Source: a virus. Taken from it: a stretch of DNA of 64,000 bases. The stretch lies in the IMG/VR virus record IMGVR_UViG_3300009157_000016, positions 1-64,000 of that record; one strand, given 5' to 3'. Each line of letters begins with the position of its first letter. The first letter of the stretch is position 1. Positions 1-15,390 of this stretch are shown here, one piece after another. Under the pieces are notes generated by a model. It did not search any database, was not told where the DNA came from, and saw nothing but the letters and a program-made list of their open reading frames with translations. The position numbers and the translations under genes were made by a program.

Positions 1-311
1 AAGGCCGCCGCCCGTGACTTCCGCACGTAGATGGTGACTTGCTCCTTGACGTGCGGGCCGTTCCCAACTCGCACAACGCCGCCGCCATCCACCCGTATGC
101 CGTATTTCCTATCGGCGTTGTTGCCACGTCCTCGGGAAATGTCCAAGGTCATGACGCACCATCCGATGGAGTCCGTCTTGTAGAAGGTCAACATCCCGTG
201 CTGACCCACATCGTGAACCATCGGGTCCTTCTGGAAGTCCGGGTAGCTCAGGTCAACCGCCAGCACGTTCGGCGGAAGAGCCTGAGGCTTCTTGCCTGTT
301 GCTCTTTTCAT
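1..311 (-). CDS. hypothetical early protein (runs off window start)
   Basis: ATG at 311 preceded by the repeated RBS CAGCAGGAGAGAGAAC; open frame MKRATGKKPQALPPNVLAVDLSYPDF... to the window edge; not in ORF track. Confidence 0.75.
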   Translation of the reverse strand, partial: MKRATGKKPQALPPNVLAVDLSYPDFQKDPMVHDVGQHGMLTFYKTDSIGWCVMTLDISRGRGNNADRKYGIRVDGGGVVRVGNGPHVKEQVTIYVRKSRAAA

Positions 312-390
312 GTTCTCTCTCCTGCTGTGAAGCACTCACGTTGAGCACTTCCCTATCCAGTCACTCTGACTGACTGGATGAGGCTGCGCT
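312..390 (-). repeat. intergenic hairpin+RBS element, copy 1
   Basis: AGCGC-AG-CCUCAUCCAGUCA-GUCAGAG-UGACUGGAUAGGG-AA-GUGCU (344-390) followed by CACAGCAGGAGAGAGAAC-ATG. Confidence 0.9.
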
Positions 391-778: not shown

Positions 779-855
779 AGTTCTCTCTCCTGCTGTGAAA
801 TGCTTCCTAGCACTTCCCTATCCAGCCGCTCTGACCGGCTGGATGAGGCTGCGCT
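779..855 (-). repeat. intergenic hairpin+RBS element, copy 2
   Basis: Same as copy 1 with compensatory stem changes (UCA/UGA to CCG/CGG). Confidence 0.9.
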
Positions 856-1309: not shown

Positions 1310-1390
1310 AGTTCTCACTCCTGCTGTGAAGTCCTCATCGTGAGCACTTCCCCTACCGGCGCAGTTCCCTGCGCCGGTAATGGCAGCGCT
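1310..1390 (-). repeat. intergenic hairpin+RBS element, copy 3
   Basis: AGCGC...UACCGGCGCAG-GGAA-CUGCGCCGGUA...GUGCU plus CACAGCAGGAGTGAGAACT-ATG. Confidence 0.9.
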
Positions 1391-1882: not shown

Positions 1883-1962
1883 AGTTCTCTCTCCTGCTGT
1901 GTTGAAATGCTCCTAAGCACTTCCACATCTAACCGGGCTGGCCGGTTAGATGGGGCTGCGCT
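1883..1962 (-). repeat. intergenic hairpin+RBS element, copy 4
   Basis: AGCGC-AG-CCC-CAUCUAACCGG-CCAGC-CCGGUUAGAUG-UGG-AA-GUGCU plus RBS. Confidence 0.9.
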
Positions 1963-2543: not shown

Positions 2544-2625
2544 GATTCTCACTCCTGCTGTGAAGTATCCTGCTGTGAACACTCCTGCATCCAGCGGCCA
2601 CGCCGCTGGATATAGTTGCCTTCAC
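2544..2625 (-). repeat. intergenic hairpin+RBS element, copy 5 (divergent)
   Basis: GUGAA...AUCCAGCGGC-GUG-GCCGCUGGAU...UUCAC plus CACAGCAGGAGTGAGAATC-ATG. Confidence 0.8.
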
Positions 2626-2981: not shown

Positions 2982-3635
2982 TTACCCCCTACCCTTCGCA
3001 GGGCTGCTTCCCCAACGGGCCACTTCCTTTTGCCTCAGCGGCCCATGCCGCTTTGCCTTCTTGGCCTTGGGTTTCTTTTGTGTTAGCTGCTCTTGCAAGT
3101 TGTCAGTGCCTACGCTGCGCATCTTGGGGAGCGCAACGTCACCATGATTCTCATTCATGGGGCCGCACTGGATGAGAAGCCACGTGATCACTTGGGATTG
3201 CAAGGCCACCGGGAGTGTGATCATCCACACCCCCTGACGCAGCCTGCGCCCTGAGATCATGAAGAGGCTATTCACCATGTGAGGCTGGAGCACCGGCTGC
3301 TTGCCCTTCATCTTGTAGCTCCAGCCAGCCGGCCGGCGTACAGTGAAGGGGAGTTTGACGCCACCTCTTTCAAGGCGGTCACCAAACCTCTTGCGAACAG
3401 CCTTGTCATTGAGAGTGACCGGCACATCCCGCGTGGGGTAGTGCGGCTTGCTCATCGCACGCTCATCCTGGCCCTTGGCTATCTCACGGAGCAGTGCCCG
3501 TGCTTCACCAAAGGCTAGGCCCTGCTCACTTAAGAGGAGCGTGCCTGCCGCCTCACGCCGTGCCCGCTGGGATGCGCGCCGCGCTTCCCGTAGGTCATGT
3601 TCAGCATGAAGCAGCTTTCTTACTGCCTTTTCCAT
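2982..3635 (-). CDS. hypothetical basic protein, first gene of the leftward operon
   Basis: ~217 aa ORF; RBS CAGGAGG upstream of ATG 3635. Confidence 0.75.
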   Translation of the reverse strand: MEKAVRKLLHAEHDLREARRASQRARREAAGTLLLSEQGLAFGEARALLREIAKGQDERAMSKPHYPTRDVPVTLNDKAVRKRFGDRLERGGVKLPFTVRRPAGWSYKMKGKQPVLQPHMVNSLFMISGRRLRQGVWMITLPVALQSQVITWLLIQCGPMNENHGDVALPKMRSVGTDNLQEQLTQKKPKAKKAKRHGPLRQKEVARWGSSPAKGRG

Positions 3636-3710
3636 TTCAACCACCTCCTGTGTGATGCCCTACGCATCAGCAAATGGCCTTCTTGGAAGCCACTTGCTGA
3701 TGGGTAGGTG
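3636..3710 (-). repeat. intergenic hairpin+RBS element, copy 7 (divergent)
   Basis: CCUAC-CCAUCAGCAAGUGGCUU...AAGGCCAUUUGCUGAUG-CGUAGG plus CACAGGAGG. Confidence 0.65.
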
Positions 3711-4507
3711 GCAGGCGCGCTTGTGACGGCGCGCCCGCCTACCCAACATTGCAGGAGGAGGAGAACAGCGTGGTGTGTGAGATGGCAGCTACTTGGCCCC
3801 TCACTTGAGATGCCTAAGAACCTTGCAGCATTGGCTGGTTGCTAGCGGCTTCACTTATCTTGCTGCCCTTGCGGCTTGACACCTACGTGCTGAACAGGAT
3901 CACGGGAACTGTTCAGGTTTCAGGGCGTCACTACACTTCCCTTTGCTGGCTTGCCTTGTGGGAGGGCTGCCGGTGCGTCACGTAGGCTGATTGCCGCCAG
4001 CCAGCCCTTGCGGGGCTGGCGGGATGCAAGATGTGGCTGATTGAGCTATGCAGGGTGCTATCATGGGTGCGGGAGTAGAAGCCCACACACCACGCTTGAA
4101 TTTGCCGCCCGGCTAATTGAGATGAGGAGTGCTACCCCTCACCCTAGGCGCGTTGAAAAGCGCCAAGCCTGTGAGATACGGAAGGGTTTTGCCCCCATGC
4201 CCCGCGCCGGTGACCGGCTGCAACACATGGGAAGACTTACTCACTGCCCCCTACAACGGGAGTTACAGGCCAGTGTCACCATCATCAGCGGTTACTCATC
4301 TCACCCCCTTGCCGTCAGGTGCCCCTCAGCAATCAAGATCACGCTAGATGACCCCTTTTGCCCGTGCCCGTGCGCCGCAGCTTAACAGCGGGATGAGAGT
4401 TTCACCAGCAGCGCAGTGGCTACCGGGTTACCCTCATGAGAGTTTGCGGTGCCTCACGGCGCTGCTCATCTCAGATGCCTTCACCTATGCCATAACGCAT
4501 AGCGGCA
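3710..4507 (-). ncRNA. candidate large structured leader/ncRNA (~800 nt)
   Basis: No credible ORF. Perfect 13-bp long-range inverted repeat (3767-3779/4084-4096), 9-bp inverted repeat (4118-4126/4295-4303), several GNRA-capped hairpins; starts just after a sigma70 promoter. Confidence 0.55.
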
Positions 4508-4512
4508 GCTAC

Positions 4513-4541
4513 ACGTTACCATAGGCGTTACACAGTGTCAA
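4513..4541 (-). promoter_or_regulatory. sigma70-type promoter (leftward)
   Basis: TTGACA (4541-4536), 17-bp spacer, TAACGT (4518-4513). Confidence 0.8.
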
Positions 4542-5288
4542 CCTAGCCAAAAGGATAATTTTGAGCCTGTGCAAAAGATAAGGCAGCTCATCCTGCTACC
4601 ATCCTCGCACCCATCTTCATCGCATTCTTCATACCCATCTTATTCGTATATCTTCCCGCCCCTCATAGCAAAGAAGAAAGCAGATTCGAAAACAAATCTA
4701 GCAAACGGGATTAAGAGCAAAACCCCCAACCCCGTCAAACGACATAAGTGCAACAATGCCCGCAAGAAGGGGACCAAACCGCATCCATGTGTAGGAGGAA
4801 TCGAAAACAAATCTAGCAACCAAGGATCAGGAGCTAACTCCTTGTCCAGCCAACGAATAAACAACAAAGCCCCAAGGCCCAAGAGAAGCGGTTCCCAGTG
4901 TCCTAAGATGCAAACGTTCTAGCAGTCCTACGACTCTAAGAAAAGCCCCATCCAGCAACCTTACTCTTCCTACGTCCCACCCCCGTCACATAGAACAGGT
5001 TCCTAGGACAAAGCAAACCGACACCAAGAGGATAATCCTGCCAAAGACACCAAGAATGCAGCTTATGTGGACAGCACTCCCCATAGAGCCCACTGGACCC
5101 ACAATGCAGCTTAAGAAAACAGGAAACCCACGTAGTCCGTTGAAAAAGCCTGTCTAAGGCCGCCTCCCCTCAAGAAGAATTAATCGTGGACTGAGAAGAA
5201 CAGGACAGACTCTATCGTGTTCTTTCTTCCCCACAGTCCCCCATACCACATAAGGGGGTTTGCTAGAAGAACAAGATACTCTTCTTTG

Positions 5289-5416
5289 GCACGACCCGCA
5301 GGAATTATATGCACGACAGGACTCAATTCCCTTGCACGAGCAGGTTCAATTCTTGTGTGCGACGCTGGGTATTTCTTCACACCGACCATGTGGAATAGTG
5401 TAGCACGACTATCAGG
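5289..5416 (+). repeat. imperfect ~22-23 bp tandem repeats GCACGA..CAGG..AATT
   Basis: Units start at 5289, 5311 and 5334; weaker copies at 5359 and 5403. Confidence 0.6.
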
Positions 5417-5531
5417 ATGAAAGTAGATTCGAAAAAATTTCTAGCAACCGGGTTTTCGAACGACGTGGGGAATGCTCTAGCTGTCTTATTCATTGTGCTA
5501 CTTAGGTCGTCGTTCCTTGCGGAAGGGCTCT

Positions 5532-5734
5532 ATCGTCTTCTTTCTTCTTCCGGGGGTCTCTTTCTTCTTCCCCATGCGGACATGCGGGGAAGAAGATGGA
5601 AGGCGATTCGAAAAAATTTCTAGCGAAGGGGGTTTGATAGCGCGGGCCAACTATGAGAAGAAGAGTGCCCAAGAAATGGTTAATCGTCCTCTTTCTTCTT
5701 CCGGGGGTCTCTGTCTGCTTCTTTCTTCTTCCCC
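5532..5734 (+). repeat. pyrimidine-rich direct repeat pair
   Basis: ATCGTC(T/C)TCTTTCTTCTTCCGGGGGTCTCT...TCTTCTTCCCC at ~5532-5573 and ~5683-5734. Confidence 0.8.
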
Positions 5735-5923
5735 GCGCCGTGAAGGGAAGAGGGCGGGAAGAAGAGGGAGGAGATTCGAAAGCGATTATAGGAAGAAGAA
5801 TGAGGAGCGCCGGCGCGAGGAGGCCGGGAAGAGGGGTGCCGGCCGCCGGCCGCAAGGCGGCATGGTTAACGGGAGGTTTATTAACCATATGCCTGAAAGC
5901 GCCGCCGGCATTGTTGTTTTTTG

Positions 5924-5952
5924 TTGCCGTTACGCTGTGTAACGCCCATATT
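5924..5952 (+). promoter_or_regulatory. putative sigma70-type promoter (rightward)
   Basis: TTGCCG, 17-bp spacer, CATATT; the spacer contains the CTGTGTAACGC motif. Confidence 0.5.
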
Positions 5953-6122
5953 GACGTTGCACCGGGCTTGACCGGTCAGGGCGGCCCATGCCGCCCGCTT
6001 CACCGGGCCACGCGCGCTTGACGGCGCTTGCACGTGGTACCGCGGCGGCGCTAAGCGGCCGGGCTCACTTGCCCGTGCCATGCTGCGCAAGGTGACACGG
6101 CGCAAGCCGGTGCCGCGCTATG

Positions 6123-6141
6123 GCGTTACGCTGTGTAACGC
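6123..6141. promoter_or_regulatory. palindromic operator-like site GCGTTAC-N5-GTAACGC
   Basis: Related copies at 4525-4541 (-), 5928-5945 and 6808-6824 share CTGTGTAACGC. Confidence 0.6.
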
Positions 6142-6169
6142 TAGGCGCAAAGCCTGAAAGGTTGAAGCA

Positions 6170-6760
6170 ATGGCAAAGGGTATTGACTACGGTTTCACCG
6201 GCGTGAGCCGCGCGGCGCTTGACTACTGGCCCACGGGCAAGGCGGCGCAAGGCGGCATTGACTGCGGCCCACGGCCCACGCAAGCGCAGCTTGACGCGGC
6301 CGCCGTGCTACTGCCACGGCAGGGTACGGGCAAACACTTGGCGCTTGCCATGTACGGCCGTGAAGGCGGCGCGCTACAGGCGCAAGTGAGCCGCGTGACC
6401 GGTGACACGCAAGTGAACGTACTGCGCAACCTCATTGCCGCCGGCAAGGTTGTGGCGCGGCCGTTGCCGGGTGAGGGCAACGCCAAGCGCTACGCGTACG
6501 CGTTGCCGGGCGCGGCCAAGGGCAAGGGCAAGGGCGCGGCCAAGGTGACCGCCACGCCGGCCGCCAAGGTGACCGCCAAGGGCGCGGCCAAGCCGGCCGC
6601 CAAGGGCAAGGGCAAGGGCAACGTGCCCGCCGTGCCCGCCAAGCCTGACCGCGCGGCGCTTAAGCGCGCGGCTGACGCGCTTTTGGCCAAGCGCAAGCCG
6701 GCCGCCACGGTGGCCGCCACGCCGGCCGCCACGCCGGCCGGTGACAAGCCGGCCGCCTGA
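6170..6760 (+). CDS. putative DNA-binding protein: winged-helix-like domain plus histone-H1-like Ala/Lys/Pro tail
   Basis: 196 aa; GT...EGGA...TG..Q.NVL..L...G core; AAKVTA/KGKGKG repeats in the C-terminal half. Confidence 0.75.
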   Translation: MAKGIDYGFTGVSRAALDYWPTGKAAQGGIDCGPRPTQAQLDAAAVLLPRQGTGKHLALAMYGREGGALQAQVSRVTGDTQVNVLRNLIAAGKVVARPLPGEGNAKRYAYALPGAAKGKGKGAAKVTATPAAKVTAKGAAKPAAKGKGKGNVPAVPAKPDRAALKRAADALLAKRKPAATVAATPAATPAGDKPAA

Positions 6761-15012: not shown

Positions 15013-15390
15013 CTATACCTTTCTCAGCTCTCGGTTTAGCCGCTTCTTTAACGTGTCGGCAAGCACACCGATCTCCTCAGCCCATTCTGTGAGGGTTTTA
15101 GTTCTACCGTCAAGCGTCACCAGTCGATTGCGGCGCGTGTTTCGAGCTTGTTGGCGTGCGGTTGCCCAATGGCAATTCTTTTTGAAGTAGCCGCGTTCGT
15201 TGTTCTTTCGCTCAAGGGTTAGGCCGTGCGGGGCCTCACCCATGTCAGCTAGGAAGTTTTCAAAGTTGTTCCAGCGCTCACAAATCACTAGGCCGCGCCC
15301 GCCGTAGTCCTTGAACTTCGGGTGATTGGGATTGAGGCACCGCTGCCGCATGTTAAGCCAGCAACGGTAGGTTCTGGTTTCTTGTGCCAT
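15013..15390 (-). CDS. HNH homing endonuclease-like protein
   Basis: WLNMRQRC.NP...YGGRG..ICERW..FENFLADMG...TLERKNN..GY..NCHWAT. Confidence 0.85.
   Translation of the reverse strand: MAQETRTYRCWLNMRQRCLNPNHPKFKDYGGRGLVICERWNNFENFLADMGEAPHGLTLERKNNERGYFKKNCHWATARQQARNTRRNRLVTLDGRTKTLTEWAEEIGVLADTLKKRLNRELRKV

Follow-up and report, generated by a model that had tools for sequence, protein, structure and literature searches.

A conserved pyrimidine element in the early leader of four T5-sized phages is a candidate cis-acting anti-Shine-Dalgarno sequence

The early genes of a ~108 kb phage are preceded by a long leader region that holds a 15-base pyrimidine element complementary to the ribosome binding site (RBS) of its early genes. 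The best explanation, in which we have about even confidence, is that the long folded 5′ leader of the leftward early transcript carries this element as an anti-Shine-Dalgarno sequence acting in cis. Its sequence, conservation, position and predicted pairing, together with a structural bias towards the early-sense strand, are established in the following sections. We infer that the leader is transcribed on this strand, and that the helix would form in the cell and lower translation.

Phage genome and early gene array

The source record is a 108,377-bp phage genome (G000), and the window, the whole stretch of 64,000 nt analyzed here, is its first 64 kb. The record encodes a capsid protease, a major capsid protein, a DNA polymerase, a clamp loader and SbcCD-like genes, a set typical of large siphoviruses that are distantly T5-like. 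The early genes occupy the minus strand from position 3635 down to 1 and resume at the opposite end of the record. Some ten are each preceded by a repeat unit consisting of a long hairpin that begins at the preceding stop codon, a short second hairpin and a conserved RBS motif abutting the ATG. A scan of the window with this cassette motif gave 10 matches against 2.4 expected, a count reached in 0 of 100 shuffles. Five copies are listed in Table 1, and the record has at least three more outside the window, at 103.7-107.1 kb.

An ORF-poor gap of ~2.5 kb (3636-6170) separates the leftward array from the first rightward gene (6170-6760), and a home-made coding-potential scan detected no gene on either strand of the gap. 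In the public annotation the first early gene (P0001) starts at 3455 and encodes 157 aa; an ATG at 3635, preceded by a strong Shine-Dalgarno (SD) sequence, leads to the longer product given in Table 1. This protein has no Pfam or PHROGs family and no homolog in a search of 5.8 billion proteins, and the phage DNA of the region has no match in the phage database searched by DNA. A protein search revealed no integrase in G000 or G001, a relative described below, and no T7/phage-type RNA polymerase was found in these two genomes, in a search that had no positive control. Integron-like cassettes and a phage-polymerase promoter were rejected on these two results, the second of which carries the same qualification.

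Table 1 Features of the early leader and gene array (window coordinates)
Feature	Position	Strand	Basis or remark
Conserved pyrimidine element, candidate anti-SD sequence, 15-mer	3752..3766	-	Sequence and conservation
Invariant 12-base core of the element	3753-3764	-	Same in all four phages
Start region of first early gene, predicted cis partner	3633..3650	-	SD 7-mer 3644-3650, ATG 3633-3635
First early gene	2982..3635	-	217 aa
Hairpin B, adjoining hairpin A	3660..3703	-	Predicted folds
Hairpin A, between element and first gene	3704..3745	-	Predicted folds
Closing helix of leader domain, 3′ strand, 13 bp, long-range	3767..3779	-	Predicted folds
Interior of ~330-nt folded leader domain	3780..4083	-	Predicted folds
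Same 13-bp closing helix, 5′ strand	4084..4096	-	Predicted folds
12-codon ORF after plus-strand reading of element	3770..3808	+	Without counterpart in G001, G006 and G004
Cassette RBS motif copy 1	311..325	-	Motif scan; possible trans target
Cassette RBS motif copy 2	779..793	-	Motif scan
Cassette RBS motif copy 3	1310..1324	-	Motif scan
Cassette RBS motif copy 4	1883..1897	-	Motif scan
Cassette RBS motif copy 5, variant	2544..2558	-	Motif scan

The element complements the cassette RBS motif

A sequence-only reading of this DNA had described a leader segment complementary to the repeated RBS of the cassettes, and the description is accurate. The minus strand from 3767 to 3751 reads as it stated and contains CCUCCU, the core of the 16S anti-Shine-Dalgarno sequence. 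Complementarity to the cassette motif extends over two 7-base blocks around a 1x3 internal loop, with 7+7 bases for copies ending in A (4 of 9) and 7+6 bases otherwise. By simple arithmetic, two exact 7-mers spaced 1-3 bases apart are expected ~2e-5 times in ~900 nt on two strands, so the match is not due to chance. The 12-base core occurs a single time in the 108-kb genome, even with up to one mismatch allowed.

Duplex prediction, a check that the same reading had suggested, likewise agreed with it: element-cassette duplexes are predicted at -20 to -24 kcal/mol against a median of -15 over all 170 start regions. Nine cassette sites in G000 (-19.7 to -23.7 kcal/mol) and 11 sites in G001 show complementarity of this kind, as pairing in trans would require. 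Duplexes with the first-gene site are weaker than those with the cassettes (-18.4 in G000 and -13.5 in G001), and the 5′ block of the element is a better fit to block two of the cassette motif than to the first-gene site. The cassette sites themselves form only weak duplexes of -7 to -9 kcal/mol with the tail of 16S rRNA, represented by a typical sequence that may not be the host's. Because the site of the first gene is, in every phage compared, a worn form of the cassette motif, complementarity alone cannot tell cis from trans.

Conservation in three related phages

Three informative, distant relatives were traced via the major capsid protein: G001 (102.6 kb, capsid identity 61%), G006 (a 27.7-kb fragment, 60%) and G004 (106 kb, 66%). 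Each has an early array bearing a related start-associated motif, and each carries the pyrimidine element once, on the early-gene strand upstream of the first early gene. Conservation in related phages, on which the sequence-only reading depended, was thus found in all three. The 15-mer is identical in G000, G001 and G006, and G004 keeps the 12-base core with changed flanks, leaving twelve invariant columns in the four-way alignment. In every genome the element lies 3′ of a large folded leader domain, with one to three hairpins before the first early gene.

The longest word common to the G000 and G001 leaders is 15 bases; masking it lowers the maximum to 10, as expected by chance, and a word of 15 arose in 0 of 1000 dinucleotide shuffles. 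The four genomes span 49% (G004) to 58% (G000) G+C. Given a 15-mer shared by otherwise unalignable leaders over this range of composition, the element is, on sequence grounds, under selection. It is more conserved than any single cassette site. The gene directly behind it encodes a different, unrelated small protein in each of the four phages.

Several other searches were made for relatives. The first-gene protein as query found none in the collections. In the viral and metagenome collections the conserved cassette protein matched G001 and a 4-kb fragment and no other record; genomes gave no match. As a DNA pattern, the cassette motif gave one chance match, which was discarded, and the 15-mer gave at least 118 matches in IMG/VR, at about the chance rate and none with cassette arrays. 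A near-match to the element in G002 was discarded since it lies inside a gene, and G005 (70% G+C) has no cassette array.

Leader fold and strand of the element

The 13-bp helix that the sequence-only reading had placed next to the element is present in the minimum-energy folds, and the element adjoins it directly. Equivalent helices were found in G001 and G004. The ~330-nt domain of G000 has fold z-scores of -4.4 (sense) and -3.9 (antisense); these are so alike that the domain alone does not decide the strand. The stretch from element to start has z-scores of -6.7, -8.4, -5.6 and -5.3 in early-sense folds of the four genomes against -4.6, -4.5, -4.3 and -3.4 on the other strand, and the sense value is the more extreme in 4 of 4. 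Furthermore, three G·U pairs in the closing helix of G001 would become A·C mismatches if read on the other strand. The early-sense strand thus appears to be the functional strand of the element.

A consensus scan detected no sigma-70-type promoter for the leader. On the sense strand, scanned for the ends of a discrete small RNA, nothing resembling a promoter precedes the element and nothing resembling a terminator follows it. Rfam gave no match at gathering score in the whole window and only chance-level matches at E up to 5 in 3600-4650. Membership in a known RNA family, including c4 (RF01695), was rejected, there being no match to an Rfam model.

Predicted pairing with the first early gene

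Minus-strand RNA of G000 was folded in four contexts of 151 to 961 nt, bearing in mind that predicted folds of RNAs near 1 kb are unreliable. Positions 3752-3758 pair with the SD sequence of the first gene at 3644-3650 in all four (p 0.97-1.0). Additional pairs join 3760-3761 to 3641-3642 and 3763-3765 to 3636-3638, making 7+2+3 bp that reach to 1 nt before the AUG. The anti-SD helix closes a junction with hairpins A and B. Sequestration of the segment in local structure, which the sequence-only reading had named as counting against itself, is what the folds predict: in G000 it is paired with the first-gene SD (p ~0.99), and in the relatives with the first-gene SD or a tract just upstream.

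The relatives differ in detail. In G001 the element lies 215 nt before an identical 7-mer first-gene site, with two hairpins between, and the pairing is context-dependent (p 0.45-1.0); in wide contexts an upstream purine tract competes at about 50:50, and pairing there extends the leader closing helix. In G004 the distance is 80 nt with one hairpin between, and the element forms a 7-bp complement to the AGGAGGA form of the first-gene site (p 0.99). In G006 the SD stays outside the helix: the element is paired (p 0.8-0.99) with a purine tract whose end lies 4-5 nt upstream of the SD. The 3′ half of the element is thus paired with the first-gene SD in three of four genomes in early-sense folds.

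With an accessibility of 0.19, the first-gene start region ranks 12 of 170 and is among the least accessible start regions; values for the cassette sites are 0.49-0.73, and these are open. Folds lacking the first-gene site leave most of the element unpaired, and folds including it show the element paired.

Upstream purine tracts (99770-99777 of G001 and 15103-15109 of G004) adjoin the 5′ strand of the closing helix and could pair with the element's 5′ half. The 12-15-mer of G001 and G004 may therefore have both halves paired simultaneously or alternate between partners. Just before the first gene of G001, a terminator-like hairpin with a U run (~100573-100591) overlaps the 3′ strand of the predicted anti-SD helix and could be an attenuator-type alternative fold.

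The base pair between the 3′ end of the element and the base before the first-gene site is G-C in G000, G001 and G006 and A-U in G004. As judged from the alignment, this would be one compensatory change favoring the cis partner. The changed base would form a C·A mismatch with 8 of the 12 cassette copies behind the G004 consensus. Covariation of the element with the cassette RBS had been suggested as a further check on the sequence-only reading; the only clean compensatory change follows the first-gene site and not the G004 cassette consensus, which speaks against that reading. Variation in the SD core is precluded, since this site has to fit 16S rRNA too. A covariation test on duplexes across genomes gave a mixed preference for own over other sites, and none for the G001 element. 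Complementarity beyond the 7-base core, tested against shuffled flanks, is not significant (P = 0.86 in G000 and 0.20 in G001), and extra cis complementarity in the flanks was rejected.

A proposed cis-acting anti-Shine-Dalgarno model

Under the cis model, the RNA would be made and its large leader domain would close upon itself first. The pyrimidine element would emerge next, followed by one to three stable hairpins, and the first-gene RBS would emerge last and pair with the 3′ half of the element. The resulting helix would close a multi-branch junction and make the site inaccessible to 30S subunits. For the first gene to be translated, the fold would have to be opened or cut, and candidate means of relief are nuclease processing at the hairpins, the competing upstream purine tract, or a factor.

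The proximity of the element to the first gene and the single covariation favor action in cis. The two-block match and the extreme conservation favor several targets or a bound factor. A strand of a plain helix need not be invariant over 12-15 bases, which counts against a role in cis only. This invariance, together with the fit of the 5′ block to the second block of the cassette motif, suits a multi-target or protein-bound element.

Alternative readings

The sequence-only reading had proposed that the leader RNA could regulate translation of all cassette genes in trans. The leader, or a cut piece of it comprising the folded domain and a pyrimidine tail, would lower cassette translation as leader accumulates. 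We consider this unlikely, and are equally doubtful of a variant in which the element acts at long range within the polycistronic RNA or in addition to cis pairing. Much of the basis for the proposal stands: both blocks of the element fit the cassette motif, the duplexes in G000 and G001 are stronger than those with the first-gene site, and the targets are structurally open with weak fits to a typical 16S tail. An element that outconserves any single cassette site is expected of one regulator with many targets, and element and array occur together in all four genomes. The element is also mostly unpaired in folds that lack the first-gene site. Even the changed 5′ block of G004 fits about four cassette copies by Watson-Crick pairing and about six by G·U wobble.

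Action in trans is nevertheless not the simplest reading. The element is predicted to be paired in cis whenever the first-gene site shares the molecule, and the G-to-A change in G004 mismatches most of the cassette copies there. The cassette copies of G006 mostly lack the second block, yet its element is unchanged, and the G001 element shows no preference for its own sites in the cross-genome duplex test. The sense-strand scans revealed no terminator or separate promoter marking a small RNA. Stoichiometry is a further difficulty: with one anti-site per polycistronic RNA, titration of 10-15 sites would require that the leader be cut off and build up. Cutting at the hairpins after the element might yield a stable RNA with a single-stranded pyrimidine tail that shuts off 10-15 cassettes, an outcome to which we give little credence. 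The proposal thus keeps its complementarity, duplex strength and conservation, and is weakened by the predicted cis sequestration, the stoichiometry and the covariation in G004.

It is improbable, in our estimation, that the element acts as double-stranded DNA or on the opposite strand. As DNA it would be an inverted start-associated motif bound by a factor that reads the cassette motifs, a version we think improbable as well, despite exact conservation of 12-15 bases being typical of a protein site and the retention by Cluster K mycobacteriophages of one inverted start-associated sequence (SAS) away from gene starts (PMC3203893). On the opposite strand, it could be a purine-rich 5′ tag (an RBS-like stabilizer) or the start of a plus-strand structured RNA from 3768. 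That, too, is hardly probable, even with the motif at the edge of a closed 330-nt domain that folds about equally on both strands. The sense-biased structure in 4 of 4 genomes and the G·U pairs in the G001 closing helix argue against these versions, as do the 2.4 kb devoid of plus-strand genes and the lack of an integrase or, in the search that had no positive control, a phage-type RNA polymerase in G000 and G001.

The plus strand of G000 also reads as an RBS, which, as the sequence-only reading noted, serves a 12-codon ORF (GTG 3770 to TGA 3806-3808). This ORF is probably not a gene, judging by its lack of a counterpart in G001, G006 and G004. There the opposite strand has no start codon after the motif, or an AUG followed immediately by a stop. 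An opposite-strand RBS with a small ORF was rejected since a start codon stands behind the motif in this phage only.

Lastly, the element could be a functionless relic of an inverted cassette junction within a leader structure conserved for other reasons, its RBS match a by-product. We hold this to be quite improbable, and the same goes for its premise that the structure is kept for, e.g., RNA stability or processing; the chance-level cis complementarity beyond the core and the many 15-mer matches in phage metagenomes (at least 118, at about the chance rate and without cassette arrays) are in keeping with it, but 12-15 invariant bases at the same relative position in four genomes with unalignable leaders are hard to explain without selection.

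Relation to known systems

Early read-through transcripts of the phage T4 genes e, soc, 49 and I-TevI mask their own start sites (PMC3014915). There, as in the cis reading, pairing of the SD or start codon with a more upstream part of the mRNA blocks the 30S subunit and times a phage gene. The T4 structures are short local hairpins, relieved by a late promoter inside, whereas here the strands are 80-215 nt apart with hairpins between, and a promoter scan showed no internal promoter. A further difference from T4 is that the anti-site borders a leader domain of 300-600 nt and consists of a conserved triple pyrimidine repeat. The element most likely masks the first-gene RBS by folding back on it, which would be a familiar form of translation control found here in a new setting.

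The early mRNAs of T7 and the N leader of lambda are processed by RNase III, and processing within a leader changes start-site accessibility. They resemble the present array as early polycistronic RNAs punctuated by conserved irregular hairpins, but the hairpin sequences are unrelated. The c4 antisense RNA is processed from the leader of the operon under its control. In P1 and P7, exposed segments of c4 (RF01695) pair around the RBS of its own mRNA and block translation (PMC12197685). The likeness lies in phage RNA segments that block an RBS of the phage's own mRNA; in c4, a discrete RNA of 77 nt, the seeds are presented in loops and a single operon is targeted, whereas the element here has no Rfam match.

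The cassettes resemble the SAS/ESAS of Cluster K mycobacteriophages, in which a repeated asymmetric motif with an SD core lies a few bases upstream of the start codons of 11-19 non-structural genes, extends beyond the 16S pairing and is preceded by inverted repeats in about half of its copies (PMC3203893). The likeness is in layout only; motif sequence, phage lineage and host differ, and the cassette motif here does not fit the 13-bp SAS consensus of PMC3203893. One inverted SAS of Cluster K is not at any gene start, and its function was unknown in 2011 (PMC3203893). That copy was not linked to a leader or to RNA pairing, whereas the inverted copy here is 3 bases longer and more conserved than the direct copies. 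SAS function was still untested as of 2025 (PMC12699233).

Significance

Early-gene arrays with an extended repeated RBS motif have been known since 2011 from the Cluster K SAS (PMC3203893), with no partner known. What is new is that four uncultured T5-sized phages carry one conserved complement of such a motif, at a fixed leader position. If it acts in cis only, this is one more case of start-site masking, useful for annotation and for the timing of the first gene. If the cassettes are also targeted, one RNA segment could switch off the whole early gene set, and compensatory mutations in the block outside the 16S rRNA contact would make the purpose of SAS testable. A cut leader RNA, if real, would be a leader-derived, multi-target master anti-RBS RNA. 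It would offer the first mechanistic explanation for start-associated sequences conserved past the SD core, and for the lone inverted SAS of Cluster K mycobacteriophages it would suggest an idea that can be tested.

Cassette hairpins and a second sample

The long hairpins of the cassettes (311-2625 in the window and 103.6-107.8 kb in G000) have a conserved basal helix and a variable upper stem. In layout they resemble sites of nuclease processing between early genes, and their counterparts in G006 and G004 precede U runs in the manner of terminators. The cassette protein at 1634-1882 of the window is 60% identical between G000 and G001. Metagenome contig Ga0105091_10010004 (4020 bp) encodes a 100% identical part of the cassette protein at 1391-1882, which indicates a near-identical phage in a second sample.
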